A stretch of DNA of 64,000 nt, taken from assembly GCA_964606505.1 (NCBI GenBank), contig CAZSGM010000001.1, positions 113,588 to 177,587 on the forward strand, in the 5' to 3' direction. The first letter of the stretch is position 1, and every line of letters starts with the position of its first letter. The translations under genes were made by a program, and so were the position numbers. The notes under the pieces are model-generated. The model was given only the letters and a program-made list of their open reading frames with translations, searched no databases and was not told the DNA's origin. Of the stretch, positions 1,818 through 62,816 are shown in pieces. The DNA comes from an uncultured Lachnospiraceae bacterium. GTDB taxonomy: Bacteria; Bacillota; Clostridia; Christensenellales; UBA1242.

Positions 1818-2621
1818 TGCGGGATATGAAAATTAAATCATATTAAATAAATTTATTTGTTAGATAAAATAATTATAAATAAAATTAATATATTTTAATT
1901 ATAATTATAAATTTATTAATCATAAATAGGATTATATTAATTACAAATGGGGATATAATTATTAATTAATTATCAATAAAAATACATTAATTAATAATAA
2001 GCATATTCAATTGATAACAAGTATATTTAATTAATAATGAACGCAATTAATAAATATTATTAATAATTAATAGACATATTAAATAATAATTGAGTAATTT
2101 TACTTAATAAGTAATTATTATTTAATTAAAATAAGTAATTAAAACAATAAATTAATATTAATTAAATAATTAAAATATCAATAATAAATAAAATATTAAT
2201 AATAATTGTTTAGTAATTAAATTAATAAATAAAAACCTTATCAATTTAATCGGGGAATAAAAATTTATTTAATTAATTAATAATAATTTAATTAATTAAA
2301 TCAGTAAAATCAATAAAAAAAGTGCGAAAAATCTATATTTTTCACACTTTTTTTGTATTTATTTTTTACTAATATTTATATTTATTTCATAATTACTTAT
2401 TTATTATTAAACTATAATAATTCTTCTAATAATTAACTACATTATTTTTATAATTAATTATTATGTTTTTTCTAATAATTTATTTAATTTTGCATTTATT
2501 ATTTTTTAATTTAATAAACAAATTATAATTGTGGTTAATAAATACAATTAATTATTTTGTGTTTATTAATTAAATATTTTAATAATTATTTAATTGCTCA
2601 TTATCTGTATTTTTTATTCAG
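1818..2621. repeat. ~800-bp extremely AT-rich low-complexity spacer built from degenerate TTAATTAAT/AATAAT words
   Basis: By direct reading there is almost no G/C apart from one hairpin. It lies between convergent genes. Confidence 0.8.
2314..2355. terminator. Bidirectional intrinsic terminator
   Basis: Stem AGTGCGAAAAAT/ATTTTTCACACT (one mismatch) with loop CTAT, an A-run upstream and T6 downstream. Confidence 0.6.
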
Positions 2622-3101
2622 TTATTTGCGCGCATTAAAAATGCAGTTTTTTATTAATTGCAAGTTGGCGGGGGTGATGTGCTTTTTTTCGACGGGGAAT
2701 GCGGAGACTCTGTTAACAAAAAGGAAGAGGTAGTCGGAACTCTCCTTGACTTTTTCAATTTGCGAGTAAAGCACGCGAACGGCGCCAAGGTTTTCCGACT
2801 GCTTAAATGTTACGATTGTAATACCCGTTTCGTCGAACTGATAAATGTTGACGCTGTTTTCTTCCATTGGGCGTTTGTACATCTTGGTTAATGCGCTTAA
2901 GTATACGATTCCAAAACCAAGCGGGAGCGCAAACGCGAGCAGCCAAACCGTCCAGCCGGTTTCATTAAAAATGAAATCGCTAACTAGGTACGTAATCACG
3001 CCTGCCGTGCCAATAATGGTAGCCAGCCACGCGCCGATGTAGAGTTTTTTTGTCATTGACTTGTAAATGCCATTAGTTAAAACTGTTGTTGCTTCTATCA
3101 T
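2622..3101 (-). CDS. Small membrane protein, YcxB-like (two TM helices plus a C-terminal soluble domain)
   Basis: 159-aa ORF with two hydrophobic helices (WLATIIGTAGVITYLV, WTVWLLAFALPLGFGIVYL). The family assignment is from memory only. Confidence 0.55.
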   Translation of the reverse strand: MIEATTVLTNGIYKSMTKKLYIGAWLATIIGTAGVITYLVSDFIFNETGWTVWLLAFALPLGFGIVYLSALTKMYKRPMEENSVNIYQFDETGITIVTFKQSENLGAVRVLYSQIEKVKESSDYLFLFVNRVSAFPVEKKHITPANLQLIKNCIFNARK

Positions 3102-5988: not shown

Positions 5989-6543
5989 ATGGAAATATCA
6001 GAGGTAAAAAAAGGTATGCACGTCCTTATTGACGGCGAATTGTATCAAGTTATCGACTTTTTACACGTAAAACCTGGTAAGGGCGCGGCATTTATGAGCA
6101 CAAGAATTAAGAAAGTGCGCACTGGGGTTACTATTGACAGGAACTTCAACACAAACTACAAGATTGAGGAAGCGCACATTTCTAGACGCAACGCTCAATA
6201 TCTTTACAACGATGGCGACACTTATTACTTTATGGATAACGAGAGTTTTGAACAATCGGAAATCCCTGCTGATAAGGTTGCGGACAACAAAAACTTCTTG
6301 ATTGAAAACTCAAGTGTTGATATTGTAACTTTCAACAACGAGTTGCTTGGGATTATTATTCCAGAAAAGATTGAAATGACGGTTGTCAGCATTGACCCTG
6401 CGACGATTGCTTCTACGGCGACAAAGCCTACTGTTGAGGCAATCCTTGAGACAGGACACAAACTTAGAGTGCCTGAATTTATCAAAGAGGGCGAAAAAAT
6501 TATTGTTACAACTAGCGACGGAAAGTATTATTCACGCGCGTAG
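5989..6543 (+). CDS. efp: Elongation factor P
   Basis: 184 aa. VKPGKGAAF loop, typical EF-P length and domain order, AGGAG RBS. Confidence 0.95.
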   Translation: MEISEVKKGMHVLIDGELYQVIDFLHVKPGKGAAFMSTRIKKVRTGVTIDRNFNTNYKIEEAHISRRNAQYLYNDGDTYYFMDNESFEQSEIPADKVADNKNFLIENSSVDIVTFNNELLGIIIPEKIEMTVVSIDPATIASTATKPTVEAILETGHKLRVPEFIKEGEKIIVTTSDGKYYSRA

Positions 6544-6815: not shown

Positions 6816-7559
6816 ATGGCGAAAGTTGCGATGGTTACGGGGGCAAGCCGCGGGATTGGAAGAACGACGGCGCTGGAGTTTGCAAAGAATGGGTATGATG
6901 TTGTGGTTACTTACTTTGAAAACGCGGCGCTCATTGAGGGCGTGCGCGAGGAAGTTGAGAAACTGGGGCGCAGGTGCCTTGCGTTTCAGTGCGACATATC
7001 GGATGAGGAGCGCGTCAAGGAGATTGTTTACAAGGCGGTCAAGGAGTTCAAAAAAATTGACGTGCTCGTCAACAACGCGAGTATTGCAAACGACGCGCTG
7101 TTTGGGCAAAAAAGCGTTGAGGACTTTAGGCGTGTTTTGGACGTTAACTTGGTCGGGACGTTTATTGTCAGCAAAAACGTCGGGGAGTTTATGCTCGAAA
7201 ACAAAAGCGGGAAGATTATCAACATTGCGAGTACAAACGGGATAAATACTTATTACCCTATGTGCGTTGACTACGACGCGTCTAAGGCGGGCATAATTTC
7301 GTTGACGCACAATTTGGCTATGCAGTTTGCGCCCTACATAACAGTGAACGCCGTCGCCCCTGGGTTTATCGCGACGCAAAGCGAAATCAAGGATATGTGC
7401 GAGGAGTTTATCAAGTCGGAAGAGGGAAAAATCTTCTTAAAGCGCGCAGGAACAGAAGAGGACGTTGCAAACTTGGTTTTGTTCTTGGCGTCAAATAAGG
7501 CAAATTTTATCAACAATGAAGTTATCCGCATTGATGGCGGAATGTACGGCGCGTTCTAA
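6816..7559 (+). CDS. SDR-family oxidoreductase, FabG-like
   Basis: TGASRGIG cofactor motif, YDASKAG catalytic motif, NAVAPGFI; 247 aa. Confidence 0.85.
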   Translation: MAKVAMVTGASRGIGRTTALEFAKNGYDVVVTYFENAALIEGVREEVEKLGRRCLAFQCDISDEERVKEIVYKAVKEFKKIDVLVNNASIANDALFGQKSVEDFRRVLDVNLVGTFIVSKNVGEFMLENKSGKIINIASTNGINTYYPMCVDYDASKAGIISLTHNLAMQFAPYITVNAVAPGFIATQSEIKDMCEEFIKSEEGKIFLKRAGTEEDVANLVLFLASNKANFINNEVIRIDGGMYGAF

Positions 7560-7795
7560 CGCTTGCTCGGCGCAACCTCTATATGCGGTCGCGCTACAAC
7601 ACTCGCTTTGAGCAATCTCAGTTTGCGAATTGCTAAACATTTACACGTGGTGCAGGTAGCACAAAAGGGCGGAATTTAAACACTTGCACGCGGGTGCGCG
7701 TCTGCGCAGTTAGTAATGTAATTCATTTAAGTGTACGGCGCGCTAAAACACTTGCACGCGGGCGCAGGAGTTGTTTTTTTTTGAATATAAAATTA

Positions 7796-7838
7796 AGGTT
7801 ATCCACAATGGGTGCAATTTTGTGGATAACCCTTTTTT
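7796..7838 (+). terminator. Hairpin + T6 whose stem is a pair of inverted perfect DnaA boxes
   Basis: GGTTATCCACAA (7796-7807), 11-nt loop, TTGTGGATAACC (7819-7830), then CTTTTTTG. Confidence 0.6.
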
Positions 7839-7954
7839 GTATTTGTCGCGATTGTTTATGTGTAACCCACTTTGCTTTATTGTACGAGTTTGCGCTTTTA
7901 CATAATGAAAAATATTGGTGTTAAGCAACTTAAATATGCGCGGTGGCAAATATT

Positions 7955-7990
7955 CTAGGCAATTCAAGTATTTGAATTGCCTAGTTTTTT
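7955..7990 (+). terminator. Strong intrinsic terminator with no annotated gene immediately upstream
   Basis: CTAGGCAATTCAA / TTGAATTGCCTAG 13-bp stem, loop GTAT, T6. The stem word GCAATTCAA..TTGAATTGC recurs at ~54347-54370. Confidence 0.6.
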
Positions 7991-8040
7991 ATTATTCCTT
8001 TTGTTGGGGTGTCGTGCTTGGATTTGGTGCACTTGTCGGG

Positions 8041-8330
8041 TTTTGTCGCAAATTGTTGAATTTTGACACATTTTGCCAAATCTTGTCAAACTTTGTCAAA
8101 ATTTGGGAGAATATGTCAAAATTTGTAGAATAATGTCAGATTGTGTCAAAATTTGTAGAAATTTGTCGAAAATTTTTAAATTCTGTCGAAATTTAAAATA
8201 TTTTGTCGATTTATAAAATAAATTGTAGAATTATAAAATATTTTGTCGAAAATAATAACATTTTGTCAAAATTTGTCGAAAGATTAAATAATTTGTAGAA
8301 ACTTGTTGAAACGTGTCAAATTTGTCGAAA
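8041..8330. repeat. Array of ~20 TTGTC[AG]AA / TTGTAGAA words in a strict 10-bp register
   Basis: Read directly. The motif falls at the same offset in consecutive 10-nt blocks over ~290 bp. A 17-mer TGTCAAAATTTGTAGAA occurs twice. Confidence 0.8.
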
Positions 8331-8517
8331 AGCAAAAAATAGTAAAGCAGACGGCGCGCGAGAAGTGCTGGGTGTGCGGCGTGTTTAGATTGCAGTGGCA
8401 GACGGGAATTGCGGCGGGTGGGTTTTGATTGGTGCGGGTAAGGCAAACGGCATTGCGGCGAGTGCCACGATTGCAGAGGGGAAGTGCTTTGATTGGTGCG
8501 GGGGTTATTCAATTTGT

Positions 8518-8547
8518 TTGCAAAAAATGTGTCAATTGTGGTATACT
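8518..8547 (+). promoter_or_regulatory. Extended -10 promoter of the Big_2/MBG lipoprotein gene
   Basis: TTGCAA (8518-8523), 18-nt spacer ending in TGg, TATACT (8542-8547). Confidence 0.55.
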
Positions 8548-8575
8548 AAAACAAATGGGAGCGAGTGGGACACAA

Positions 8576-11500
8576 ATGAAGAATTTATTCAAATATTTTG
8601 GGGTTATGTTGGCGGTGATTGTTGCGTCGATTATGTTTGTTGGCTGCGACGAGGTTTCGCTGGAGGGCATAGAAATTGAGGGCTTGCCTAGCGAGGTTGT
8701 TTCGGTGGGCGAAACCTTTGAGTTGCAGGTAGTGTTCAATCCTGAGAACGCGACCGACAAGCGCGTGGAGTTTTGGACGCCGCAAAATGACCTCATCAGG
8801 CTCGAACAAGTAACTGAAACGCTAGTTTCCGTCGAAACAATCGGCGCGGGGCAAATAACGATTTTCGCGCGCGCCCTTGACGGGAACCTCGCCGCGTCCG
8901 TAACTTTCACAATTATCACAGGCTCGCTCAATCTAATGTTCGGGGAGGCAGTTAACGGCGTCATAACTCGCACCTACAACGCGCAGCCGCAGCAGGTTGA
9001 AATCGTCAACCCATTCGACGGCGTTATCTACACTTATATAAAAGAGGGCGAAACACAGGGCAGCACAACCGCCCCAACCGACGTTGGCAGGTACAAGGTT
9101 ACCGCGTCGGTCGATTCAACCAGTTACATCGGGCAGTGTGAGGCGACGCTCGTAGTTTTGCCGCAAACGCTCGAAGTCCGCGCGGACGGCAAAAGTAAGG
9201 TCTACGGCGCGAGCGACGTTGCGCTCACTAAGCGCATTAACGGGCAAATTTTTGACGAGGACGTCGTAATTGACGGCAGCCTCACTCGCGAAATCGGCGA
9301 GGACGCGGGCAACTACAAAATCGTGCAGTCGGAACCGTTTGCGGTCAGGGGCGAGCACGCCGGCAACTACATCGTTAAGTTTGTGGAAGGTAACTTCTTT
9401 ATCTCCAAAGCGCCCGTGCAGGTAAATGTTTATGTTCCCGCGATTTATTACGGGATGGCGCCTACATCTGTTCCGACCTACAGCGTTGAGGGGCTAAAGA
9501 ACGACGACACGGCGGACGAACTTGGGCTGAGTATTGCTTACCCTGATGAAATGAAAAACGCGGGAAGTTATGATTTGGTCATCAACTCAACCAACACCAA
9601 CTACGAGTGCAACTTCTCTACAACTAAGGCGTATGTCTACAAAGCACCAATAACGCTGACCGTTGCTGACGCCGAAAAGGTTTACAAGTTTGACGACCCA
9701 ACATTTAGTTATTCAATCTACAACTCCCGCAACGCGGCAGACACGACGAAATTGTTTTACGACGATACCCTCGATTTGAGTTTCTCAAGGCAAGAGGGCG
9801 AGGACGCGGGGAACTATAATGTAACACTTGTTTGCAACACCGAAAACAGTAACTACAGCCTCACTATTAGAAGCGGAAAACTCAAAATTAAAAAGCGCAA
9901 CATTTTTATAATGCCGCAAGACGCAACTAAGCGTTACGGGCAAGTCGACCCTGAATTTAAGTACGAATATATGCTCTACGAGGGTTATTACGAGCCTGTG
10001 GAGAATGAAGTAATCGTTGAACTATCAAGGGAAGAGGGTGAAGATGTTGGGGAATACCATATTGAGTCAGTCGCAAGTTACAGTGCTAACTATGTTGTTG
10101 ACACGTGGACGGCTACATTTACAATCACTAAGGCGATTGTTTCTATTAAGGTAGACGACGTTACAATCGCGTACAAGGACGCCGAGCCAAGTTACACGTA
10201 CACTGTCGACCCAGAAAAGGACGCTTTGCTTGCAGACAACAAGTTTGTGTTTGAGTTCACGCGCCCTGCAGGCGAGAACGTTGGGAATTACAGCGTTTCA
10301 ATCAATATAAAAACCGACGACAGTAACTACGAACTTTCGACCGAGTCGGGCACGTTGACGATTAGGGAGCGGTATCTATATTACGATATTGGCTCGCTCA
10401 CAATGGCGTATTATCAAAATTTTGACAGCTCAACAATTCGCGTGATTTTAGACACTGAAGTCAGCGACGCAAACATTGAAAACATAGTTGTAACTGAAAA
10501 TATTAATCTCGACATTCCGTGGAGAAACGACATTGGCGAGTATGAGATTACCGCAACTCTGAAAAATCCTGTTCCTAACTACAAGATTGAGTTTTCTAAA
10601 GGCTGCCTTTCGATAAGAACGGCATACGTCCGCATTTATGTTGAAGATTTTGAGGCTTATTTTGGGGACGATATTGATTTCGCTGAGCATTTAATATACG
10701 AAGATGATAGCGCAGTAATTTCGCTTGACAAAACCGCCGACTCAGTTGAGTTTGCTTGCTCATTGTACGACGCAAGTGGCGTGGTAGTGAGTGGATACCC
10801 AACTGTTTTGGGGACGTATACTGCTAGGTGTACGGCGACAACTCCTGAGGGAAAAAATAATTACAACATCACAATTGAGGACGGGCAATTTAACCTCAAG
10901 CAAGCAGAAATTACGTTGGAGTGCGACGACATTACCGTGGTTTACGGGCATCCGATAACTTGTTCGCCAAGAATAACGGACATAAAAGGGCAATTTTTGG
11001 GTAATCAACAACTTGGCAGAGCCATCACGGGCTCGGACGTCGGGGAGCAGACGCTGTATTTCGGGTTGATTGAAAACCTTTACAGCGAGAACTACAAACT
11101 CATTTATACGCCCGTAACTGTTACAATCACGCCTGCGCCTGTAGTTATTGATATTGCAGGAAAACAGTTTAAGTACGGGGACGAGAAAGCCTTTACCTAC
11201 ACGTTTGGCGAGGGTACGGACGAGGTGTTCTTGCAGGATATGCAGAACCTGTTGATTACGTTGAGCGGCGCGGGAACTAATGTCGGCACATACGATATTG
11301 ATTGCCTCTATCTTGAAGTTGGCGACAAACACAACTACGACGTAACCGTGAACGGCGCGCAATACACGATTGTTCCGCGCGAGTACAAAGTGAAAGTTAA
11401 CGACGCTACCAAAAAATACGGCGAGGCTGACCCAACATTTACCTTTGCGCTCACAGAGAGTAGCGACACGCTGCTTGAGGGCGACGTGCTTGAACTCACT

Positions 11501-11896
11501 TACAGTAGGCAGGACGGCGCAACCGTTGGCGTGTACGACATAACGGCGACGGCAGCTGACCTCGGGTCAAACTACGATATTTCTGTGCAAGGCGGGGTAT
11601 TGACAATTACAAAAAGAAGTGTTACAATAACAGCCAACGACCTCACGATAACGGAAGGGCAAACCCCAACATTTACCTACACGTTGAGCGGCGACGCGAT
11701 TTTAAATAATGACATTGAGTTTAGTCTCACGTCTGAGGGGACAACGGCGGGTACGTACGACATAACAATAAATATCACTAAAAACAACGCCAATTACGAC
11801 GTAACTTGCGTTGCGGGCGAACTTACTATTAACCAAAGTTCGACAGACGCTCCCGACGCCCCCGCGTTGCCCAACACGCCGAATGTGTCTGAGTGA
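8576..11896 (+). CDS. Surface lipoprotein: signal peptide with lipobox, one Big_2 domain, ~10 MBG (YGX-type) repeats
   Basis: The internal start MKNLFKYFGVMLAVIVASIMFVGC (lipobox FVGC) is preferred over the track start 8429. Big_2-like segment VGETFELQVVFNPENATDKRVEFW. Repeated K[VK]YGxxDPxF[TS]Y...SR[EQ]EGED[AV]GxYxI modules. Confidence 0.85.
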   Translation: MKNLFKYFGVMLAVIVASIMFVGCDEVSLEGIEIEGLPSEVVSVGETFELQVVFNPENATDKRVEFWTPQNDLIRLEQVTETLVSVETIGAGQITIFARALDGNLAASVTFTIITGSLNLMFGEAVNGVITRTYNAQPQQVEIVNPFDGVIYTYIKEGETQGSTTAPTDVGRYKVTASVDSTSYIGQCEATLVVLPQTLEVRADGKSKVYGASDVALTKRINGQIFDEDVVIDGSLTREIGEDAGNYKIVQSEPFAVRGEHAGNYIVKFVEGNFFISKAPVQVNVYVPAIYYGMAPTSVPTYSVEGLKNDDTADELGLSIAYPDEMKNAGSYDLVINSTNTNYECNFSTTKAYVYKAPITLTVADAEKVYKFDDPTFSYSIYNSRNAADTTKLFYDDTLDLSFSRQEGEDAGNYNVTLVCNTENSNYSLTIRSGKLKIKKRNIFIMPQDATKRYGQVDPEFKYEYMLYEGYYEPVENEVIVELSREEGEDVGEYHIESVASYSANYVVDTWTATFTITKAIVSIKVDDVTIAYKDAEPSYTYTVDPEKDALLADNKFVFEFTRPAGENVGNYSVSINIKTDDSNYELSTESGTLTIRERYLYYDIGSLTMAYYQNFDSSTIRVILDTEVSDANIENIVVTENINLDIPWRNDIGEYEITATLKNPVPNYKIEFSKGCLSIRTAYVRIYVEDFEAYFGDDIDFAEHLIYEDDSAVISLDKTADSVEFACSLYDASGVVVSGYPTVLGTYTARCTATTPEGKNNYNITIEDGQFNLKQAEITLECDDITVVYGHPITCSPRITDIKGQFLGNQQLGRAITGSDVGEQTLYFGLIENLYSENYKLIYTPVTVTITPAPVVIDIAGKQFKYGDEKAFTYTFGEGTDEVFLQDMQNLLITLSGAGTNVGTYDIDCLYLEVGDKHNYDVTVNGAQYTIVPREYKVKVNDATKKYGEADPTFTFALTESSDTLLEGDVLELTYSRQDGATVGVYDITATAADLGSNYDISVQGGVLTITKRSVTITANDLTITEGQTPTFTYTLSGDAILNNDIEFSLTSEGTTAGTYDITINITKNNANYDVTCVAGELTINQSSTDAPDAPALPNTPNVSE

Positions 11897-12250
11897 TTGC
11901 GTAACTGTTGATTATTAAAAAATACAATTAAATTAATAAAAACGCAATTAACGTTTGAATTGATTAAGAAATTCAATTGACGATTAAATCAATTATTCAA
12001 ATAAACGATTAAAATCATTAAAAGGATTAAATTAATTGTTAAAAAGTAAAATTAATTAAAAAAATACAATTAAAATCAAATATAATGTAAGTTGTGAAGT
12101 CTAATTTTTGCGCAGGCGGAGGGATGGTTGACGGCGATTAAAAGCCGACAGGTTAAGCGGCGATAATTTGGCAGATTAATATTTTAATCAAAAAATGAAC
12201 GATTAAATGCGAATTGTTGCATAATTAAAACAAAATACTAAGGAGAGAAG

Positions 12251-12952
12251 ATGTTTCCAATACGACAATCGTGGTTTGATTTGCTGAAGGGGGAGTTTAG
12301 CAAGGACTACTACAGGGATTTGACGAGGTTTTTGACCGACGAGTACAGCAGGCGCACAATTTATCCTAAGCCTGAGAATGTTTTTAACGCACTGAACTAT
12401 GTTCCGTACAGCGATGTTAAGGTGGTTATAATTGGGCAAGACCCCTACCACCAGCCAAATCAAGCGAACGGGCTTTGCTTTTCTGTGCAGCCCGAGGTTG
12501 ACATTCCGCGCAGTTTGCAAAATATCTACAAGGAGTTGCGCGACGACTGTGGGTGTTACATCCCCGACAACGGCGACCTAACTAAGTGGGCAAAGCAAGG
12601 AGTGCTGCTGCTCAACAGTGTGTTGACCGTCAGGCACGGGCAGGCAAACTCGCACAAAGGCAGGGGTTGGGAAAACATTGTTGCGAAAGTGCTGGAACTT
12701 CTTAACAACCGCGCCGCCCCCGTAATATTTTTGCTGTGGGGCAACAACGCCAAGGCACTCGCGAAAAACATCGACGCGACCAAACACTTTGTGCTCACGT
12801 CCGCCCACCCAAGCCCGCTCTCTGCGAGCAACGGCTTCTTCGGCTGCAAGCACTTCTCAAAAACAAACGAGATTTTAAAACAACTCGGCAAAACTCCAAT
12901 CGACTGGCAAATTGAAAATATAAGGAACGACAATGGAAAACAAACAATTTAG
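12251..12952 (+). CDS. ung: Uracil-DNA glycosylase
   Basis: GQDPYH and HPSPLSA motifs, 233 aa, AAGGAG RBS. Confidence 0.95.
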   Translation: MFPIRQSWFDLLKGEFSKDYYRDLTRFLTDEYSRRTIYPKPENVFNALNYVPYSDVKVVIIGQDPYHQPNQANGLCFSVQPEVDIPRSLQNIYKELRDDCGCYIPDNGDLTKWAKQGVLLLNSVLTVRHGQANSHKGRGWENIVAKVLELLNNRAAPVIFLLWGNNAKALAKNIDATKHFVLTSAHPSPLSASNGFFGCKHFSKTNEILKQLGKTPIDWQIENIRNDNGKQTI

Positions 12953-13541
12953 TCATTACTTTACAAACGACGACGCGACCCATAACGAGCACGTAATTTA
13001 CGCGCGCTTTAATGATAAGGAATTTAAGTTTTTGACGCAAGACGGCGTTTTCTCCAAAAGCAAGTTAGATGACGGAACACTATTTTTGCTAAAAACCGTC
13101 ATTGAAATGGAACACCCAAGCGGCGCGGGGTTAGACCTCGGTTGCGGTTACGGAACTATCAGCGTAATACTGCCAAACTTTTGCGACGTGCAAATGACGG
13201 CTTGCGACGTAAACGAGCGCGCCTGCGAACTTACAAAACATAATTTGCAAAGCAACAACGTAAGCGCGCAAGTGCTTGTTTCGGACGTGGCGCAAAATGT
13301 GGATAAGTCCGACTTTGATTTTGTTATAACCAACCCGCCAATTAGGGTTGGAAACGCGATTTTGTTCCGTTTTTTTGAGGAAAGTTATCAAAAATTGCGG
13401 GATAACGGTGCATTTTATGCAGTATTACGTAAAAAACAGGGCGCGGAAACGTATATGAAAAAAATTGCGAGCATTTACGGAAATTGCGAAGTTTTGGACA
13501 AACATAAGGGTTACGTGATTTGTAAAGCGGTAAAAAAATAA
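12933..13541 (+). CDS. Class I SAM-dependent methyltransferase, RsmC/MTS-domain-like
   Basis: LDLGCGYG SAM motif and VITNPPIRVG motif IV. Overlaps the ung stop by 20 nt. Confidence 0.8.
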   Translation: MENKQFSHYFTNDDATHNEHVIYARFNDKEFKFLTQDGVFSKSKLDDGTLFLLKTVIEMEHPSGAGLDLGCGYGTISVILPNFCDVQMTACDVNERACELTKHNLQSNNVSAQVLVSDVAQNVDKSDFDFVITNPPIRVGNAILFRFFEESYQKLRDNGAFYAVLRKKQGAETYMKKIASIYGNCEVLDKHKGYVICKAVKK

Positions 13542-13600
13542 TTTTTGCGTTAAAAAAATATTACAGTAAAAAAATAATTATTGCAGCTAAAAATTATTAT

Positions 13601-13865
13601 TGTGGTAACAAATGTTGTAGTAATAAATTTTGCAGTAAAAAATATTATAGTAACAATTATTGTGGATAAGTTCATAAAAGAAAAATTTAAAAAACAAAGA
13701 AAAAATTATATATAAAAAACAGTTAACAGAAATAAAAAAACAACAAACAAAAACAAAAAATGTGGACAATTAAAAATTGGTACAAAAAAAGTTGATAAGT
13801 AAAAATGTGGATAACTAAAAAAATCGACATTACAAAGAATGTGGAAAAGTAAAAAATGTGGATAA
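13601..13865 (+). promoter_or_regulatory. Co-oriented DnaA-box cluster in an AT-rich spacer upstream of rsmA
   Basis: Perfect TGTGGATAA at 13661, 13806 and 13857. One-mismatch boxes TGTGGACAA (13761) and TGTGGAAAA (13840). Preceded by ~14-bp degenerate TT[GA][CT]AGTAA repeats (13545-13660). Confidence 0.6.
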
Positions 13866-13940
13866 CGTCTTTGCGTTGTCGCCGTGCAAATATGGCGGTG
13901 GGAAACAGCGCGGAGAGTTGTAGAGCAAAGAAGAGGAATT

Positions 13941-21921: not shown

Positions 21922-22346
21922 CTTGGCAATTTGCAAACAATTAGCGTTTTATTGAAATAATCATTTCCAATTAAAACGCATTTTAACAAAACGAAAAACG
22001 CGTTGCTTGTACCTCCTTATGTTTTGGGGTAAGTAACGCGTTTTTTGTGTGTATTTGAGTAGGTTGCTCGAGTTATTGCATTGGGGAGTGGTTGAGTTGT
22101 TGGTTAATTTTGGCGGTTTCAATGGTGTTTGCTTTGCGCTTGTGAGTGTTTTGTGGGGCGTATAGGGACTTTGAAGATTATAAAAAATTGCAGGGGGCGG
22201 GGGGTGTTCGGGGTATTTATATTGCAGATGTTTTGCACGTGGTTGATTTGCTTGTATTTTTGCGCGTTTTACGGTTTGGTTTTAGGCTTATTTTGGGCGC
22301 ATTTTTGTTTAATTTTTGGGCAGGGGTAAGCCGATTGTAAGAAAAA

Positions 22347-22383
22347 AAATCTTTCGCTTATGTGTCCCATAAGCGAAAGATTT
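22347..22383. repeat. Left recombination-site candidate (IR-L): 16-bp-arm palindrome around the asymmetric core TGTCC
   Basis: AAATCTTTCGCTTATG TGTCC CATAAGCGAAAGATTT, preceded by A8. On the minus strand this reads as a hairpin followed by T8. Confidence 0.85.
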
Positions 22384-22391
22384 ACACCATT

Positions 22392-22420
22392 ATTGTAGCA
22401 AATTAGATAAAAAATATCAA
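22392..22420 (-). promoter_or_regulatory. Near-consensus sigma-A promoter inside the invertible cassette, currently pointing away from gene 22596
   Basis: Minus strand: TTGATA (22420-22415), 17-nt spacer ending in TGc, TACAAT (22397-22392). Confidence 0.6.
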
Positions 22421-22505
22421 ACATTTTGCCAAAATTATTGAAAAATCATTAAAAAATGGTCATTTTTTGCTATTTTTCTCCTCAAAAAATCGAATTTTGA
22501 AGAAT

Positions 22506-22536
22506 ATCTTTCGCTTATGGGACACATAAGCGAAAT
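22506..22536. repeat. Right recombination-site candidate (IR-R): same arms, core GGACA (reverse complement of the IR-L core)
   Basis: 22506-22535 is the exact reverse complement of 22352-22381 (30/30). Confidence 0.85.
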
Positions 22537-25349: not shown

Positions 25350-25850
25350 GTTGATACTGTAAAACTACAAGTATAACCCCTTTGAGTTGGCATTTTATAA
25401 AATTAAATAGAATACAGAATTTTCATAAATTAAATTTAAGTAATCACTGTGTATGTGTTTAGCAAAACTATACGGATGTAAAAGCACTTAAAATTACCAA
25501 TAAAATATCTTTCTCCTTATAAATAAAGTTTTCTCCTTTGTATTAAAAATAAATGAAACCTTATTTAAAATGAAGTTTAAAAAAGCAAATGAAGTCTTAA
25601 TAAACCAAGTGAATTTTATTTAAAAATGGAATTCCAATAAAAATAAATGAAACATTATTAAAATAAATATAAATACATCATTCGCACAAATATTTCATTT
25701 GTACAAATACCCCAATAGTGCGCTTATTGGTATAAATACTTAATTATATATTAGTTCAAATATAAGTTATTTACACAAAAACGCGTCAACGTAAAGCCAA
25801 AATTTCCGCAAATGGGGCTATTCCTACTGAACAATTTTCCAAAAATCAAA

Positions 25851-25914
25851 AAATCTTTCAGTAGTACTGAATAATTTTCGCAAAAAAGTAAAATCTTTCA
25901 GTAGTACTGAATAA
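25851..25914. promoter_or_regulatory. Two 24-bp direct repeats, each containing the palindrome TTCAGTA-G-TACTGAA (operator-like), 40 bp apart
   Basis: AAATCTTTCAGTAGTACTGAATAA at 25851-25874 and 25891-25914. Extra half-sites at 25825-25831 and 25938-25944, the latter overlapping the -10. Confidence 0.6.
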
Positions 25915-38396: not shown

Positions 38397-38409
38397 GGTA
38401 GACCTTTTA

Positions 38410-38458
38410 ATATATAATAACTAACAAATATATAATAACTGATTAATATATAATAACT
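38410..38458. repeat. Three 18-bp-spaced copies of ATATATAATAACT
   Basis: Copies at 38410, 38428 and 38446. Confidence 0.8.
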
Positions 38459-38477
38459 GACTGGGCGCGTGGAATTC

Positions 38478-38660
38478 AGTGCGTGAACTTGGCAAATTTG
38501 GCGAGCCGACGCGCTACATTCAGTAGATAAGTGTATGCAGGGTATTAGGTAGGTGCGCCAAATTCAATAGGTGGATGTATGAAATTTGACAAGTAGATGT
38601 ACAAATTTTGCTAAGTGGACGTGCAAATTTGATTGAGTGGGGTGGGTAAACAAATTGTGG
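38478..38660. repeat. Iteron-like array: 5-7 degenerate 22-bp units (AGTGGATGTRCAAATTTGAYA-like) in an exact 22-bp register
   Basis: Units start at 38548, 38570, 38592, 38614 and 38636, with weaker copies at ~38480 and 38521. Confidence 0.6.
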
Positions 38661-39365: not shown

Positions 39366-39885
39366 CCCTCTCCCTCAAAACTCAACTTTCATATTATCCC
39401 CATTAATGCCGCCGCACGCTTGCGCTCGTGCCGCGCTCGTGCCGCGCTTGTTCTCGCGCTCGTGCCTGCACCCGCAACACTGTCATACGCTCGCGCCTGC
39501 GCCTATTAAAATCACTGTGCCCGCCGTGTGCGTGTCTCTATCAAAACCGCCACAGCCCGTTTTGCAACCGCGCGCATAAAACTCATTAAACCTGTGTGTG
39601 CACATCGCCGCAAGTTTGCTTGTTGCGACTTTTGCGCGCCTAAGTGCCACGTCTGCAACGCGCACGTTCGCGTGCATTTGATAAAAACGCCCGTCCGCTA
39701 ACCGCCCTAAATTGCGCCAATTGCCGCGAGTTGATTTATTGCGAGCTCTAAATGTCTGCCACGCGGCAACAAAAAAAGACAAACAACTACAATTTATTAT
39801 ATTTGAGTTGACTGCCCAATATGAAAGATTTAGTTAGAAAAAATGTTTGACTAAATTTGAGAATTTGGTTAAGTACTTAACTAAA
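39221..39885. repeat. Direct repeat DR1, left copy (665 bp): amidase codons 1-48 plus 520 bp upstream
   Basis: Collinear with 43138-43802 at a constant offset of 3917. Six substitutions, all within the first ~135 bp; the rest is identical. It ends 4 bp after the perfect 14-bp palindrome GTTAAGTACTTAAC (39868-39881). Confidence 0.9.
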
Positions 39886-40134
39886 TATAAAAGTATAAAA
39901 TCTCCTAACAAAATAATTGCTGAAGGTTTAATTCCCCAAAAAACAAAGTTTATTTGCCACCAAATATTGAAATTATTTTTAACTTTTAAGATTAATATAA
40001 AGAAATTTTAAAAAACTTTGCAAATAATGATACATAAGTATTGACTTTTAAAAATTACATGTTAAAATGTAAGAAAAAGGATTGAAAAGAATTTTATCTC
40101 TTTCAGTCTTTTTACATTTAGGTGGAGGTGAAAT

Positions 40135-40554
40135 ATGGAAAAATTGAGAAAAGAAATCCTAGAAAACAATAGTAAAGTTGCGCTTGAAATAAAAAGAATA
40201 AATGACGAAATATTGCAAATCCCAAATTATTTAACAGAAGAAGAAAAAGAGACATATGGGGAAATAATAAAAGATTTAAAAGAGAGCATTAAATACAGAT
40301 TATCTCGCAGTGATGTTGAACTAATTTGGCAATATTGTCAATTGAAAATTATGCGAGATAGGGCATGGAGAGAATATAATAAAAATCCAGATAGATATAT
40401 GCGAATTGTGACTGGAATTTGTAGTGACGGGAAAACTCCCAAAGTTATAGTTAAAGAAAATGAACATTACAAAACTTTGATAGATTGCAATAAACAATTA
40501 GAGAAAGTATTAAAAGATTTAAGATTGACTCCAGAGATGAGAAGGGGGAAATAA
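40135..40554 (+). CDS. Phage terminase small subunit, P27-family-like
   Basis: 139 aa. The pattern IPNYLTEEEKETY...DVELIWQYCQ...LRLTPEMRRG matches the P27 TerS layout (from memory). GGAGG RBS. Confidence 0.6.
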   Translation: MEKLRKEILENNSKVALEIKRINDEILQIPNYLTEEEKETYGEIIKDLKESIKYRLSRSDVELIWQYCQLKIMRDRAWREYNKNPDRYMRIVTGICSDGKTPKVIVKENEHYKTLIDCNKQLEKVLKDLRLTPEMRRGK

Positions 40555-40614
40555 TAAAGTCAACGGCTTTTGGTAAATAAAAGGTTATGTTATAATAAAA
40601 ATGGAGGTGTTTAT

Positions 40615-41004
40615 ATGTTTACAGGTTATTTTGGGAAAGTTAAAAGTTATCCCCAAGATAAGGGCTATAGATTTGTGTCTATTGCTAGATTTAATAAGTT
40701 TTGGAATGGAGACGAATATAAAAGGCTTGCTCCACCTGCTGAAATTATTAAAATTGAAGACGAGGAACTTTATACGGATTTATATTATGAAAAAGTTTTA
40801 AATAAACTCAGCCCACAAAAAGTGTATGATGAATTAGGAGATAATGCAGTACTTCTTTGTTATGAAAGATGGTCAGACATAAAAGAAGAGAAAACTTTTT
40901 GTCATAGACGAATTGTTGCAAAATGGTTGGAAGATAATTTAGGAATAAAGGTAGAAGAATTAGAAAATGAGAACAAAAACGATAATGAACAATTGCATTT
41001 TTGA
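40615..41004 (+). CDS. DUF488-like protein
   Basis: 130 aa with an LLCYERW....FCHRRIVAKWL motif typical of DUF488. GGAGG RBS before ATG 40615. Confidence 0.55.
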   Translation: MFTGYFGKVKSYPQDKGYRFVSIARFNKFWNGDEYKRLAPPAEIIKIEDEELYTDLYYEKVLNKLSPQKVYDELGDNAVLLCYERWSDIKEEKTFCHRRIVAKWLEDNLGIKVEELENENKNDNEQLHF

Positions 41005-42181
41005 TGTTGTAAAAACCAATGATTTTGAAAAAGTTTTTGTTTACGCATCAGAAAAATTAGAATTAGAAAAATTAATATATAAATTTACATCGTCCCCGAT
41101 TATTGGTGGCGATGTTGATTTTTGTAATGTTTTGTTTGGGAAATATTTTAGCGATAATAATGATTTAGAATTAGGTAAAGAAATTTATGATGATTTTAAA
41201 TTGGATTCAAATTACATTTTAAGTAACGTTCAAAAACTTGCCTTGTCAATACTATATAAATCATACAGACCACAGCACATAACTGAGCATAATAAAAGAC
41301 TCTTCAAGAATGTGATTAAAAATAAAGACAAACTAATTGACTCAATTTCCAAACAAATAAGTGAAATATCATTACATTTACAAGCCTTTAGAGAATGCAG
41401 CATAGAGGAATTTATAAAAGATATTTCTTATAAGGATTTGCTAGTTATTGATAATCGTAGACTTAATTTTATTGATGATAAATTAATTCGGCAATTGCTT
41501 GATTTTAATATTAAATTTGTCATTTTATCTAAAAAAGATTTATTAACCATAAAACATAATCAAATTTTAAAATCACAAAACTTAAATGCTTACTCCAATA
41601 TTAAAATAAAACCAAAGATAATATCATGTAAGACAAAGACTAATATAGTCCAAAAATTATTTAGTACTATTGAAGATGAAAATATTAAAGATGTAGAAAT
41701 CAAGCAATTAACGTTGGTACAATTTAATGCGTTACGACAAAAATACATGAGTAAACAAATTCATTTTTGGGGAACTCCAAAAATTTGTTGCGGTTTATTT
41801 ACTGACAATAAATTATTTGGAGCTTTTGGATTAACAAATGACTATAGGAATTCACCGCCTAGTGAAATTGAACAACCATGCGTATATTTATTGTCGGATT
41901 TTGTGACGAATTCGAAGATAAGAAAATTGAGCCGATTAGTATTATATTGTTTATTAAGCAAAGAAGTGAAATTATTAGCAGAACGATTATTAAATAAGGA
42001 AATAAAATCAATTTATACTAATGTGTTTACGAAAAATATGTCTTCTATCAAATACAGAGGATTGTTTACATTACAAAGCAGAAATCAAAGGCAAGACGGA
42101 AGTTATAATTTAACATACTTTTCGACAATGGGGGAATGGGATTTAAAGGAGGGATTTGAATTGTGGAAACAGAGATTATAA
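40967..42181 (+). CDS. Hypothetical protein (404 aa), unknown function
   Basis: Long ORF in an AT-rich context. Overlaps neighbours on both sides, suggesting an operon. No motif recognised. Confidence 0.55.
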   Translation: MRTKTIMNNCIFDVVKTNDFEKVFVYASEKLELEKLIYKFTSSPIIGGDVDFCNVLFGKYFSDNNDLELGKEIYDDFKLDSNYILSNVQKLALSILYKSYRPQHITEHNKRLFKNVIKNKDKLIDSISKQISEISLHLQAFRECSIEEFIKDISYKDLLVIDNRRLNFIDDKLIRQLLDFNIKFVILSKKDLLTIKHNQILKSQNLNAYSNIKIKPKIISCKTKTNIVQKLFSTIEDENIKDVEIKQLTLVQFNALRQKYMSKQIHFWGTPKICCGLFTDNKLFGAFGLTNDYRNSPPSEIEQPCVYLLSDFVTNSKIRKLSRLVLYCLLSKEVKLLAERLLNKEIKSIYTNVFTKNMSSIKYRGLFTLQSRNQRQDGSYNLTYFSTMGEWDLKEGFELWKQRL

Positions 42182-43029
42182 AAATAAACCCACGAGATAT
42201 TAAATTATTAAAAGTAAATGCCAGATATATGAAACCTGAAGAATACGAAAAACTTGTTTCAAATATTAAAAAAGATGGACAACTAACATCTGTTCCATTT
42301 TGTTTTTATAATGAAAATCACGAAATTGAGGTTTTGTCTGGTAATCATAGGGTTATGGCATCTATCGATGCCGGACTTAATGAAATTGAAGTTATGCTAT
42401 GCAAGGACAAGTTATCAAAAGAACAAGCATTGGCTATTCAATTAAGTCATAATTCTATTTCTGGTCAAGATGATGAAGAATTGTTAAGAAGATTATACGG
42501 AGAATTAGAAAGTTTAGAATATAAGGAATATTCGGGTTTAACAGATGAATTCATCAATTATTGTAAAGAGATTGAAAAAGATTTTAAAGTACCAACTTTA
42601 TCATATCAAGCACTAAATTTATTATTTCTTCCCGAAGAAATTGAAGAGATAAAACAAGTTCTTGAAAGCATACCCTATTTATTAAGCTCTAACCACATCT
42701 TGTCAAACAAGAAGGATTATGACAACTATTTAGAATCCACAACGACAATATCAAAGTGTTTAAATATTAAAAATCCATCAACAACTTTTCTTGCCATGAT
42801 TAGATTAGCAAAAGAAAATATAGACAAATTGAAAGAACTTGCACTTAACAATGAAGATATTGATTATATTCCACTTTCCATAATTCTAGGACGAAGCGAT
42901 ATAAACAAAGATGATGCGATGATTATTGATAAAGCCTTAAACAAACTGATAAGCAAAGGTGAGATTAAAAAAAATAATAAGGAGAAGGGTTTGGCAATAT
43001 TGGCTAATTTATATCTGGAACATAAATAA
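42163..43029 (+). CDS. ParB N-terminal (ParB/sulfiredoxin nuclease-like) domain protein
   Basis: INPRDIKLLKVNARYM...VLSGNHRVMASIDAG pattern. GTG start after GGAGGG. Confidence 0.7.
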   Translation: METEIIKINPRDIKLLKVNARYMKPEEYEKLVSNIKKDGQLTSVPFCFYNENHEIEVLSGNHRVMASIDAGLNEIEVMLCKDKLSKEQALAIQLSHNSISGQDDEELLRRLYGELESLEYKEYSGLTDEFINYCKEIEKDFKVPTLSYQALNLLFLPEEIEEIKQVLESIPYLLSSNHILSNKKDYDNYLESTTTISKCLNIKNPSTTFLAMIRLAKENIDKLKELALNNEDIDYIPLSIILGRSDINKDDAMIIDKALNKLISKGEIKKNNKEKGLAILANLYLEHK

Positions 43030-43058
43030 GTATTCTATTTTATTGTGAACACACAAAA

Positions 43059-43097
43059 GCCATATATCCGATTTTGAGATATATGGCAATTTTTTTT
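43059..43097 (+). terminator. Intrinsic terminator at the right end of the cassette
   Basis: GCCATATATC / GATATATGGC stem, 9-nt loop, AA then T8. Confidence 0.7.
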
Positions 43098-43137
43098 GAA
43101 AAAATTAAAATAATTGACAGTCTTTACTTGGCATCGC

Positions 43138-43282
43138 TCCCGCCGTGCCCCGCGTCCAAAACTACGGTTATCGCGCCAATCGGAACGCCGCTAGACGCTG
43201 CGACCTTCACGCCTAGAAGGGGAACTCCCAAAGCAAAAAACGCCACCGCAACAACACTTGCAAACAATACAAACTTTTTCAT
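43138..43282 (-). pseudogene. Orphan 5' fragment (48 codons) of a second amidase allele
   Basis: Minus-strand translation is MKKFVLFASVVAVAFFALGVPLLGVKVAASSGVPIGAITVVLDAGHGG, then it diverges. It differs from the intact gene by 3 nonsynonymous and 3 synonymous changes. Confidence 0.8.
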
Positions 43283-43802
43283 CCCTCTCCCTCAAAACTC
43301 AACTTTCATATTATCCCCATTAATGCCGCCGCACGCTTGCGCTCGTGCCGCGCTCGTGCCGCGCTTGTTCTCGCGCTCGTGCCTGCACCCGCAACACTGT
43401 CATACGCTCGCGCCTGCGCCTATTAAAATCACTGTGCCCGCCGTGTGCGTGTCTCTATCAAAACCGCCACAGCCCGTTTTGCAACCGCGCGCATAAAACT
43501 CATTAAACCTGTGTGTGCACATCGCCGCAAGTTTGCTTGTTGCGACTTTTGCGCGCCTAAGTGCCACGTCTGCAACGCGCACGTTCGCGTGCATTTGATA
43601 AAAACGCCCGTCCGCTAACCGCCCTAAATTGCGCCAATTGCCGCGAGTTGATTTATTGCGAGCTCTAAATGTCTGCCACGCGGCAACAAAAAAAGACAAA
43701 CAACTACAATTTATTATATTTGAGTTGACTGCCCAATATGAAAGATTTAGTTAGAAAAAATGTTTGACTAAATTTGAGAATTTGGTTAAGTACTTAACTA
43801 AA
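43138..43802. repeat. Direct repeat DR1, right copy (665 bp)
   Basis: See the left copy. Confidence 0.9.
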
Positions 43803-43854
43803 ATTGTTGGTATATATGCACAAATAATTGCGCAAAAAAGGTCGAAAACGCGAG

Positions 43855-43914
43855 TTATCCACAAAGTTATCCACATTTTCGCAAAAACTGTGGATAACTT
43901 CCCACTTTTCCACA
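43855..43914. promoter_or_regulatory. Tight DnaA-box cluster
   Basis: Perfect TTATCCACA at 43855 and 43867, perfect TGTGGATAA at 43889, and TTTTCCACA at 43906. Confidence 0.6.
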
Positions 43915-54250: not shown

Positions 54251-54285
54251 AAAAGCCACTAGCAAAATTGCTAGCGGCTTTTTTG
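54251..54285 (+). terminator. Intrinsic terminator after the giant gene
   Basis: GCCACTAGCA / TGCTAGCGGC stem (one mismatch), loop AAAT, T6. Confidence 0.7.
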
Positions 54286-54568
54286 TTGCTCAATAAATGT
54301 TGCTCAATAAATGTTGGGGAATGGGGAGAGGGGGTAAAAAAAATAAGCAATTCAAGTGGTTGAATTGCTTAGATAAAAAGGTCAAGGTTGAGGTTAAGGT
54401 TGGAATTAGGTTTGGGGTGGGGTTTAATTTAAGAAATGGGCATTAGATAGAAAAATGTGTTTAGTATGCAAAATACATTTAAGTGGTAAATATATTAAGC
54501 AGTTAAAATATATTAAGCAGTTAAAATGTTTTTAGTTGTTAAATGGGGTTTGGAAGATAGAAAACAGT

Positions 54569-56134: not shown

Positions 56135-56941
56135 TGTACCTATCGACCTTTTTGTTTTAGTAGTATAATAGCAAATAAAACTTTTTTTGTCAACACAATT
56201 TTAGTTTAGTTGCGAACTTTCGCTAAATAACTCGCTTTTTCGCCGCGAAATGCGTTGTTTTTCGGAAAACTTTGGCATTGAGCGGGGGAACGCTCGGGGC
56301 TTGTGAAAGGAATGCGGGCGAAAATTAGCAATTGACAGCGCGTGTTAATTGGTGGGTGGTTTATATAAAAACCGACTGCGACTCGGGGCAACAACGGGGA
56401 AAGTAAAAGTTAACTCAAAAAAATGAGCGGATAACTTAAAAAGAATAAAGAATACCTAATAAAAATGAAAACAATAAAGTAATATATTAAAATAAGGCAA
56501 ACAATAAAATAATGCCTTAAAATAAAGCAAGACCCATAAAAAAAGTAATACCTTAATATAAAATAAATAAATACATTAATAACAAATACACATTTCAAAA
56601 AGAAAGGAAAGCGGTTACTTCTTGTTTGCTTATCTTTATGCAAGTATTTATTTGAATAATTAAAACATTTAAAATGTCGCAAATGTGTTTGGATTGGTAC
56701 AAAAAATAAAAAAAGAAAAGCAAAGTAAAAGTTCGCTTGATAATCTGTGAAAAACCGCAGAATATGGCAATATATTAAAAAATAAAAAAGTAAAAATCCG
56801 TAGGACGTTGCAAAAATATTAGAAGGATATAAAATTATTTTAAAGGGGGTTAAAATGTTTGATATTTTTTTGCGGGTGTGATATACTAAAAAATGATAAA
56901 AATGCAATTTTTTAAAGAAATTTGTTAAGGAGTTTTTTATT

Positions 56942-62397: not shown

Positions 62398-62816
62398 AAA
62401 AATTTAACCCAACCCAAATGAAATTAGTTGAAAAGATTATCCCCAATAATCTTAAAAAGGGTAAACTTTGTAATTCTAATAAAAGACCCTAAAAACAAAA
62501 TTATCTCCAAAATCTAAAACCCTATAAAAAGCCCAAAAAAAATTTAAAATGAATACCCTAAAATAATTAAAGCCCAAAAACTTAAAACCCCCAAACCCTA
62601 AATCTAAAATGATTAAATTACCCAACCCAAATGAAATTAGTTGAAAAAAATAAGCCCAAAAAATAAAAAACAAAAATAAAAACCCCAAAATGAAAAAAGA
62701 CCCTAAAACTTAAAAAAACAAAAAGACCCAAAGACCCCAAAATTAAAAGGAACTCCCTCAAAAGTGAGGGCGAACAACACAAAGCGAGAAAACTTGAATA
62801 AACAAGAGGAAGAACT
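62398..62816. repeat. A/C-rich, G/T-poor low-complexity spacer with CCCAAAA/CCCTAAA words and a 28-bp direct repeat
   Basis: ACCCAACCCAAATGAAATTAGTTGAAAA occurs at ~62405 and ~62620. Strong strand asymmetry by direct reading. Confidence 0.7.

Follow-up and report, generated by a model that had tools for sequence, protein, structure and literature searches.

A strain-variable array of 0A-box-like repeats at 10-bp spacing in a Clostridia-like chromosome and its possible recognition by Spo0A

Spo0A governs biofilm formation, cannibalism and sporulation through graded thresholds, and the DNA element that it recognizes, the 0A box, has a 7-bp core, TGTCGAA, set in A/T flanks. Within this core the protein contacts positions G2, C4 and G5. 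Phosphorylated Spo0A (Spo0A~P) acts as a dimer, and the footprinted sites of Nf and phi29 consist of two boxes 3 bp apart, including imperfect pairs with TGTtGAA. The box is recognized alike by the Spo0A of C. difficile and that of B. subtilis. An extended consensus, TTTGTCRAA, is said to have come from Molle and colleagues in 2003, an attribution that a literature search did not confirm. In this report we examine an array of some two dozen 0A-box-like repeats that occupies positions 8031-8329, on the plus strand, of a 64-kb stretch of contig CAZSGM010000001.1; this whole stretch is referred to below as the window.

Read as 10-nt blocks counted from 8031, the array comprises 30 blocks, of which 24 carry a TGT core resembling the 0A box and six are A/T filler. 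All 24 motif blocks have TG at block positions 4-5, follow the consensus (A/T)TT TGTC(G/A)AA and lie on the plus strand, and a single register is held over the full length, interrupted only by a slip of 1 nt ahead of the final copy (8320). Three sections can be distinguished. The left section (8031-8170) consists of 14 consecutive, filler-free motif blocks, each a different 10-mer, and contains an inverted box-like TTTGACA at 8062-8068. In the middle section (8171-8260) boxes alternate with filler, and the right section (8261-8329) holds six boxes and one filler block. The pure A/T fillers start at 8171, 8191, 8211, 8231, 8251 and 8281, and their alternation with boxes produces a 20-bp period spanning 8161-8260; Tandem Repeats Finder reports periods of 10, 20 and 40 at the array, and a separate repeat finder agrees on the 20-bp period. 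The first-pass annotation of this DNA had described about 20 TTGTC[AG]AA words held in a strict 10-bp register for some 290 bp and alternating in mid-array with A/T filler. Register and alternation are both borne out. The figure of about 20 holds (~20-24) only if one or two mismatches are allowed, and the exact words number only 11, namely seven of TTGTC[AG]AA and four of TTGTAGAA.

The array is far beyond chance. A position weight matrix (PWM) scan returns 19-20 matches per 300 bp at the array and at most three anywhere else in the window, and the array is also the window maximum of self-identity at lag 10 (0.57) and lag 20 (0.68). Five of the window's 16 perfect TGTCGAA cores fall within a 166-bp span of the array, on one strand (8164-8170, 8184-8190, 8244-8250, 8274-8280 and 8323-8329), and the other 11 are spread over the remaining 63.7 kb on both strands. 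By all three measures (PWM scan, core count and lag self-identity) there is no second array of this motif in the 64 kb. The repeats are also diverse: among the 24 motif blocks there are 20 distinct 10-mers, and 11 spacers occur, so that recent slippage does not account for most of the array.

Comparison with the 0A box is favorable in both sequence and geometry. The cores comprise six copies of TGTCAAA, five of TGTCGAA, four of TGTAGAA, two of TGTTGAA and seven singletons, such that five are perfect 0A cores and 19 carry one to four mismatches, with flanks of (A/T)TT and A. The boxes stand in direct orientation, and 7 bp of core plus 3 bp of spacer give the 10-bp period. In the early/late promoter region of phi29, the pairs TGTTGAA/TGTCGAA (5008/4998) and TGTAAAA/TGTCGAA (5040/5030) are likewise exactly 10 bp apart, and an additional consensus box lies near A3. 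The variant cores TGTCAAA, TGTAGAA and TGTTGAA resemble imperfect boxes at Spo0A sites that experiments have defined. Motif identity and spacing, together with the strain variation, core constraint and shorter arrays elsewhere that are described below, lead us to read the array as a putative copy-number-variable Spo0A~P-binding super-array of ~24 direct 0A boxes at 10-bp dimer spacing, a reading that we hold with about even confidence. That the host has Spo0A, that Spo0A binds the array and that binding has an effect are all things that we infer. The first-pass annotation had offered a cooperative binding array as one of two possibilities; its interpretation is supported in part, both ideas surviving in silico, and the binding array can be sharpened to the 0A box at its native 10-bp dimer spacing.

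The array differs among close strains, defined as contigs encoding a FabG 97-100% identical to that of the window, even as the locus is kept. One contig (L001) is identical to the window, and another (L006) has the same 30 blocks with three substitutions. Three contigs (L003, L004 and L005) have 24 blocks, lacking 20 bp and 40 bp that correspond to whole 20-bp units of the middle section, and L007 retains only ~10 blocks, which match the right section, and lacks a small unit upstream of the array. In the more distant relatives L008 (81% FabG identity) and L009-L011 (79%), the array is absent, and both a DnaA-box hairpin behind fabG and the lipoprotein promoter are kept; in L009 both are contained within the 138-bp gap between the FabG and MBG genes. 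Since copy number varies among close strains and no array exists in the relatives at 79-81%, the array is young, species-restricted and a true variable-number tandem repeat (VNTR), and its middle section is clearly still expanding and contracting. One further contig (L002, from SRR14160765) ends inside the array, at about window position 8273, and is otherwise an independent assembly of the same sequence; this break would fit a failure of assembly at the repeat, or a copy number that is heterogeneous within the sample.

Alleles that differ by whole 20-bp units, an assembly that breaks within the repeat and absence from relatives all favor what we regard as the main rival, namely that the array is a neutral or structural A/T-rich minisatellite whose 10/20-bp unit was multiplied by replication slippage, with no dedicated binder and with any effect exerted through curvature or melting. 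We consider a neutral, curved VNTR of this kind rather unlikely. Also in its favor, overall divergence between strains is as high in the array (5.0%) as in the left non-coding flank (4.1%; coding sequence, ~3%), many A/T-rich tandem repeats occur in the intergenic regions of the window, the adjacent G+C-rich spacer is itself a VNTR, and the left half of the array is predicted to be strongly curved. Moreover, 10-mers containing TGTCGAA occur as plain microsatellites in unrelated phyla. Against it, by our own estimate (20/4^7) a given 7-mer would be present, on either strand and in any rotation, in a random unit of 10 bp with a probability of only ~1e-3, and units that have diverged (20 of the 24 being distinct) still keep both register and TGT core. 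Substitutions between strains also avoid the core: 15 fall in the 3-nt spacers of motif blocks and eight in the 7-nt cores, a 4.4-fold excess per site in the spacers (binomial p=5e-4) that is based on few events and on a pairing of L007 blocks assigned by eye. The segment thus protected coincides with the boundaries of the 0A box, and the likeness of the variant cores to footprinted Spo0A sites again speaks against a repeat without a binder.

Several observations nonetheless weigh against Spo0A, beyond the small number of events in the substitution comparison. Only five of the 24 cores are perfect; among the remaining 19, 17 depart from the box at C4, at G5 or at both, which are positions that Spo0A contacts. 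The flank-like overall rate of divergence, the restriction to one species (relatives with the same gene order and promoter do without the array) and the fact that A/T-rich tandem repeats of other kinds are numerous between the genes of this genome count here as well. The nearest sigma-70-type promoter lies 189 bp downstream at a distance that is not conserved, whereas other phased arrays abut their promoters. Tandem 10-mers containing TGTCGAA or TTGTCAAA also turn up as simple microsatellites where Spo0A cannot exist, namely in cyanobacteria, Bacteroidota, an archaeon and high-G+C contigs. Hints that the present host encodes Spo0A are indirect and weak. It looks like a member of the Clostridia, judging from the best named relatives of its FabG-like protein and its CwlD-like amidase, which are both labeled "Clostridia bacterium". 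The amidase has spore_cwlD as its top NCBIfam match (7e-52) with a score of 176 bits, below the family cut-off of 221. On L155, at 12638-13760 and thus ~5-6 kb past the right end of the window, two adjacent small Gate-domain genes (170 and 186 amino acids) are spmA/spmB-like, an assignment made from domain architecture only; NCBIfam models gave no match to them. The pair adjoins an Eco47II-type restriction-modification system. No spo0A gene was found in the 10 kb past the right end, the reading having covered the window and ~10 kb only.

Other classes of element were considered and set aside. The array is not coding, in agreement with the first-pass annotation: its open reading frames (ORFs) reach at most 93 amino acids, and the indels between strains are of 20 and 40 bp. 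It is equally not a clustered regularly interspaced short palindromic repeat (CRISPR) locus, as had also been stated, since CRISPR requires repeats of 23-50 bp with unique spacers of similar length and the array offers 10-bp head-to-tail units or 10-bp A/T filler, with no unique spacers. A structured RNA was rejected because no Rfam family reached its gathering threshold, and relaxing to E<=1 gave spurious microRNA matches only; no tRNA was found. A plasmid or phage centromere (parC, tubC), Rep iterons and a phage remnant were rejected because plasmids and phages show no similarity (see below) and no partition (parM/parR, tubZ/tubR, parA/parB) or rep gene adjoins, the neighbors encoding elongation factor P (EF-P), a FabG-like short-chain dehydrogenase/reductase (SDR), an MBG lipoprotein, a uracil-DNA glycosylase (UDG) and methyltransferases. 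A DnaA-box cluster was rejected because the array cores read TGTC, TGTA or TGTT in place of the invariant TGTG of DnaA boxes (TTATCCACA, or TGTGNAWAA); the perfect DnaA boxes of the window lie elsewhere. No origin features are present.

A related possibility is that the array serves another direct-repeat binder, be it an OmpR/PhoB-family regulator (a candidate being the ResD-like motif TTTGTGAAT), a ribbon-helix-helix protein of the ParR/omega type, DnaA at low affinity, or a nucleoid protein with a preference for A/T DNA that is curved. Same-strand repeats with a 10-bp period are a generic mark of proteins that bind head to tail, such as OmpR at F1-F3 or PhoB at its boxes, and the commonest core here is TGTCAAA, not TGTCGAA. 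The 0A box also resembles the DnaA box TGTGNATAA, and the genome is rich in perfect DnaA boxes, one pair of which lies 200 bp upstream. We nevertheless think another binder unlikely. No regulator, parM/parR, rep or partition gene stands beside the array or was recognized in the window, and blastn of the array gave 0 matches in 72,556 plasmids and 50,697 phages, a result to which the low-complexity filter may contribute. Where DnaA has an invariant G the array has C, A or T, and genuine DnaA boxes, as they occur in this genome, match perfectly. The sites of PhoB and WalR have a period of 11 bp, unlike the 10 bp seen here, and the 0A box fits core and spacing better than any other known motif.

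Shorter phased arrays of the same box can be found elsewhere. When viral contigs were scanned for perfect boxes in threes, spaced by 10 bp (21 specified bases, for which we estimate fewer than one chance match), 23 contigs were retrieved, 15 of which have identical cores with differing spacers and mostly 26-39% G+C. Five of them are phi29-like (L141, L142, L150, L152 and L154; capsid 71% identical to gp8) and carry four to five phased boxes, a TGTAGAA among them, between their homologues of gp7 and gp6, where the 0A sites of phi29 also lie. Scanning metagenomes for four perfect boxes gave 115 contigs, 26 out of 114 having at least two different spacers. Most of the matches are plain identical-spacer microsatellites on contigs of mid or high G+C and are uninformative on binding; long arrays with variable spacers are found on L224 (12 boxes), L252 (~11), L219 (10), L243 (7) and L192 (6). 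Among the arrays whose flanking genes were readable, that of L224 abuts the promoter of an SH3_3 membrane protein and that of L243 the promoter of a Cu_amine_oxidN1/RHS protein, while a Clostridia metagenome-assembled genome (MAG; L061) has a box triplet upstream of a MucBP adhesin gene. This surface-gene context, which is anecdotal, parallels that of the lipoprotein gene in the window.

A further scan across GTDB for three copies of TTGTCRAA with variable gaps (N2-12) was unusable as a phyletic test. It was swamped by tandem repeats of periods 8-20, many of them multiples of three and probably coding, with ~14 in 10/20-bp register among the matches listed. Those listed in 10-bp register include TGTCGAA triplets in A/T context from MAGs of Clostridia or Bacilli, and also repeats of the TTGTCAAA type or with G+C flanks, whose sources include cyanobacteria, a Bathyarchaeon and Aquimarina. 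Because such repeats occur in these lineages, the bare tandem word is not diagnostic alone. Two other observations were made in the course of these scans. On L215, five phased TGTCGAA boxes at 309-450 are followed by parS-like TGTTTCACA repeats upstream of a gene for a ParA/Soj-type ATPase. A recurrent (CCATGTCGAA)n microsatellite follows TCTTGTCGAA beside other tandem repeats (L164, L187, L190, L214, L223, L259, L265, L270 and others), typically within 100 bp of contig ends and in a few environmental metagenomes, and has the look of a single repeated element from an abundant organism outside the Firmicutes.

With respect to DNA shape, curvature was predicted in 120-bp windows with two wedge models. 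Positions 8041-8220 rank in the top 0.2-0.4% of predicted curvature and positions 8141-8280 only in the top 4-13%. The strong curvature proposed as the other possibility in the first-pass annotation thus holds for the left half in this prediction; the middle with its 20-bp period is ordinary, and 22340-22520 is predicted to be more curved. That region, with the highest predicted window curvature (end-to-end/contour ratio of 0.59 over 120 bp), lies just upstream of a gene of 917 amino acids starting at 22596. That every copy would lie on one side of the helix, as was further stated, is true only as an approximation. At the 10.4-10.5 bp per turn of the models, each 10-bp unit turns by -15 to -17 degrees, so that the boxes wind round the helix and complete about one full turn or more overall; a 10.0-bp period predicts, under these models, a superhelical path in place of a planar bend.

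The locus is chromosomal. Gene order runs from a YcxB-like gene through methionine gamma-lyase, a nicotinamide mononucleotide (NMN) transporter, EF-P (5989-6543) and the FabG-like SDR (6816-7559) to a 1-kb intergenic region, which is followed by the MBG-repeat lipoprotein gene (8576-11896, plus strand), UDG, a methyltransferase and KsgA. Within the intergenic region the order is a fabG terminator built of DnaA boxes, a small unit with a second terminator, the array, G+C-rich repeats, the promoter and the start codon at 8576. The terminator hairpin of fabG (7790-7838, plus strand) has stems that are perfect DnaA boxes, GTTATCCACA and TGTGGATAAC, and is kept behind fabG in all relatives down to 79% protein identity, with a loop that differs each time (L007, 5930-5975; L008, 5061-5100; L009, 6748-6785). 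The second terminator hairpin (7955-7994, also delimited as 7955-7984, plus strand), with a 13-bp stem and a T-run, closes the small unit (7850-7995) just upstream of the array. This unit lies between the two hairpins, contains a 17-codon ORF, MKNIGVKQLKYARWQIF, is kept in L003 and L006 and absent in L007, and is possibly a small RNA or peptide gene; its Rfam match is only weak and below threshold.

Downstream, the element AATAGTAAAGCAG (8338-8350, plus strand) starts 8 nt after the last box and its TAGTAA ~9-10 nt after, close to the 6-14 nt that separate the last box from the -10 in L224 and L243. It is conserved in L003 and L006, and in L007 despite differing flanks, and may be a candidate weak -10/start region of an array-dependent promoter. 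Beyond it lies a G+C-rich spacer (8346-8510, plus strand) of degenerate 45-50-bp repeats (GCARACGG...), G-skewed and non-coding, which is 46 bp shorter in L006 and exchanged for a replacement of ~350 bp in L007. It has no Rfam match and folds no better than its shuffles (z = +0.84). Similar long G+C-rich non-coding stretches seem present in other intergenic regions of the window. The promoter of the lipoprotein gene follows (8518-8547, plus strand), a sigma-70-type TTGCAA-18-TATACT with a TG extension, conserved across all relatives including those without the array. The gene itself encodes a lipoprotein-type N-terminus (MKNLFKYFGVMLAVIVASIMFVGC), seven MBG_2 stretches and an MBG_3; of the Big_2/MBG description given earlier, Big_2 was not detected. 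The array does end ~190 bp before the promoter as described (8329 to 8518, 189 bp), and a direct link between the two is doubtful. Given that the spacer separating them is strain-variable and that relatives have the promoter but no array, a direct effect on the 8518 promoter is unlikely to depend on exact geometry; the conserved weak -10-like TAGTAA is nearer.

Transcription in the opposite direction must also be weighed. In this alternative the boxes would act as -35-like and the fillers as -10-like elements of a minus-strand promoter cluster that drives leftward non-coding transcription, with or without Spo0A. Positions 7400-8700 contain 18 promoter-like sites, against 2.8 +/- 1.6 in shuffles, and ten of these lie on the minus strand within the array, five scoring 10/12 (e.g., TCGACA-16-TATTAT with TG); the DnaA-box hairpin at 7790-7838 would, moreover, terminate in both directions. 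Such an excess is automatic from a repeating TTGACA-like word, however, and we take it to be mostly a by-product of the repeat. There is no conserved leftward product, the 7850-7995 unit being missing in L007 and lacking an Rfam match above threshold, and sites overlapping every 10-20 bp would interfere with one another. We accordingly rate a promoter cluster as very improbable.

How Spo0A~P might act at the array can be outlined in conditional terms. In growing cells the array would be free, A/T-rich and partly curved. As Spo0A~P rises in stationary phase or on entry into sporulation, dimers would first occupy the five perfect boxes together with their in-phase neighbors and would then spread cooperatively along the uninterrupted runs at 8031-8170 and 8261-8329, until ~300 bp are coated. 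The most likely consequence would be local transcription control. One option is a weak promoter at AATAGTAAAGCAG, past the last box, that would read through the G+C-rich leader into the lipoprotein gene; a second would involve the minus-strand -35-like hexamers (TTGACA/TCGACA) that the boxes create. Box number would set the Spo0A~P threshold. By analogy with datA and the DnaA-box clusters (DBCs), the array could alternatively be a chromosomal sink for Spo0A~P, a titration locus whose strain-variable box number (8 to 24) would tune the amount of Spo0A~P that has to build up before sporulation genes of high threshold fire. Some two dozen sites is a small number beside the regulator molecules that are likely to be present, and for this reason we judge titration quite improbable; no literature linking Spo0A, 0A boxes and a decoy role was found.

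Several other features of the window deserve mention. Perfect DnaA boxes (TTATCCACA) number nine, against 0.43 expected. An A/T-rich spacer between an MTS methyltransferase gene and ksgA (13590-13870), 5.3 kb downstream of the array, carries ~8 TGTGGATAA-like boxes in the same orientation, three of them perfect, and resembles a cluster of DnaA boxes located away from oriC; no switch of the origin type is seen in the GC skew there. Two direct perfect DnaA boxes and an inverted one lie in intergenic DNA at 43853-43897, at the right edge of an A/T-rich island (39400-43500, 26-29% G+C). This island includes a small terminase subunit and phage GNAT-like and DAM-like genes, is bracketed by direct repeats (GCGCTCGTGCC four times at 39422-39466 and 43339-43383, together with a segment that recurs at ~39847 and 43764) and is possibly a phage satellite or defective prophage. 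A 429-amino-acid ORF at 32280-33569 matches the mTERF domain (PF02536, E = 3e-45) in three stretches; the best-known members of the mTERF family are organellar, and bacteria seldom have them. Many other A/T-rich intergenic tandem repeats of the window, with differing units and periods, lie at 1864-2517, 11927-12031, 25568-25914, 38407-38630, 54284-54527, 56469-56588 and 62658-62748, and in none of these is there a 0A-like motif. Positions 2001-3000 have 23% G+C.

If the Spo0A reading is right, this in-phase, copy-number-variable array of 24 boxes would surpass in size every Spo0A docking site described so far. It would amount, too, to a natural experiment in threshold setting by box number and cooperativity, whether the threshold is that of a surface-protein gene or that of the free pool of Spo0A~P; were the array a sink, it would be a heritable and rapidly evolving dial for the sporulation/biofilm decision in gut Clostridia. 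Long phased arrays such as that of the window and those of L224, L252 and L219 would then represent an unrecognized class of regulatory element. The shorter arrays at surface genes and at the early/late switch of phi29-like phages suggest that uncultured Firmicutes and their viruses make use of phased 0A boxes more widely than has been catalogued, and phased boxes could serve to predict phages and surface antigens tied to sporulation. Even as a curved VNTR only, the array would still be useful as a strain marker and would mark a site of assembly breaks.

Set against described systems, the array is closest to the Spo0A sites of B. subtilis and its phages (the abrB, spo0A and spoIIG promoters, 0A-1, 0A-2 and 0A-3 of phi29/Nf, and oriC), with which it shares the core, A/T flanks, direct orientation, 3-bp spacer and tolerated variants such as TGTTGAA. 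It differs in that known sites have one to four boxes at or in a promoter or origin, whereas here ~24 boxes extend over 300 bp, vary between strains and stand 189 bp from the promoter. The other phased arrays (phi29-like contigs, L224, L243, L192 and L061) likewise consist of direct TGTCGAA boxes at a 10-bp period with variable spacers in a low-G+C, Firmicutes-type context, often upstream of surface-protein genes. They have, however, 3-12 boxes with mostly perfect cores directly against the -35/-10, and the window array exceeds them 2-8 times in length, has more degenerate boxes, is broken up by A/T filler and lies far from the promoter. DnaA-box clusters outside oriC (the DBCs of B. subtilis and datA of E. 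coli) are also chromosomal clusters of master-regulator sites away from classical targets; their protein and motif are different and their boxes irregularly spaced, and titration would be only a hypothesis for the array.

Two further systems are similar in form. Phased A-tract elements (plc of C. perfringens and Alu156 of B. subtilis) comprise three to six tracts immediately upstream of the -35, and the array, too, has AAAATTT tracts every 10 bp; unlike them, it lies 189 bp off, and its conserved part is a core containing G and C, not the A-tract. In the type II centromeres parC of R1 and pSK41, tandem iterons of 10-11 bp (20 bp in pSK41) are coated cooperatively by ParR into a superhelical filament. 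The array resembles these in its tandem direct repeats of ~10 bp, and is set apart from them by its chromosomal position between fabG and a lipoprotein gene, with no parM/parR or partition gene nearby and no plasmid match.

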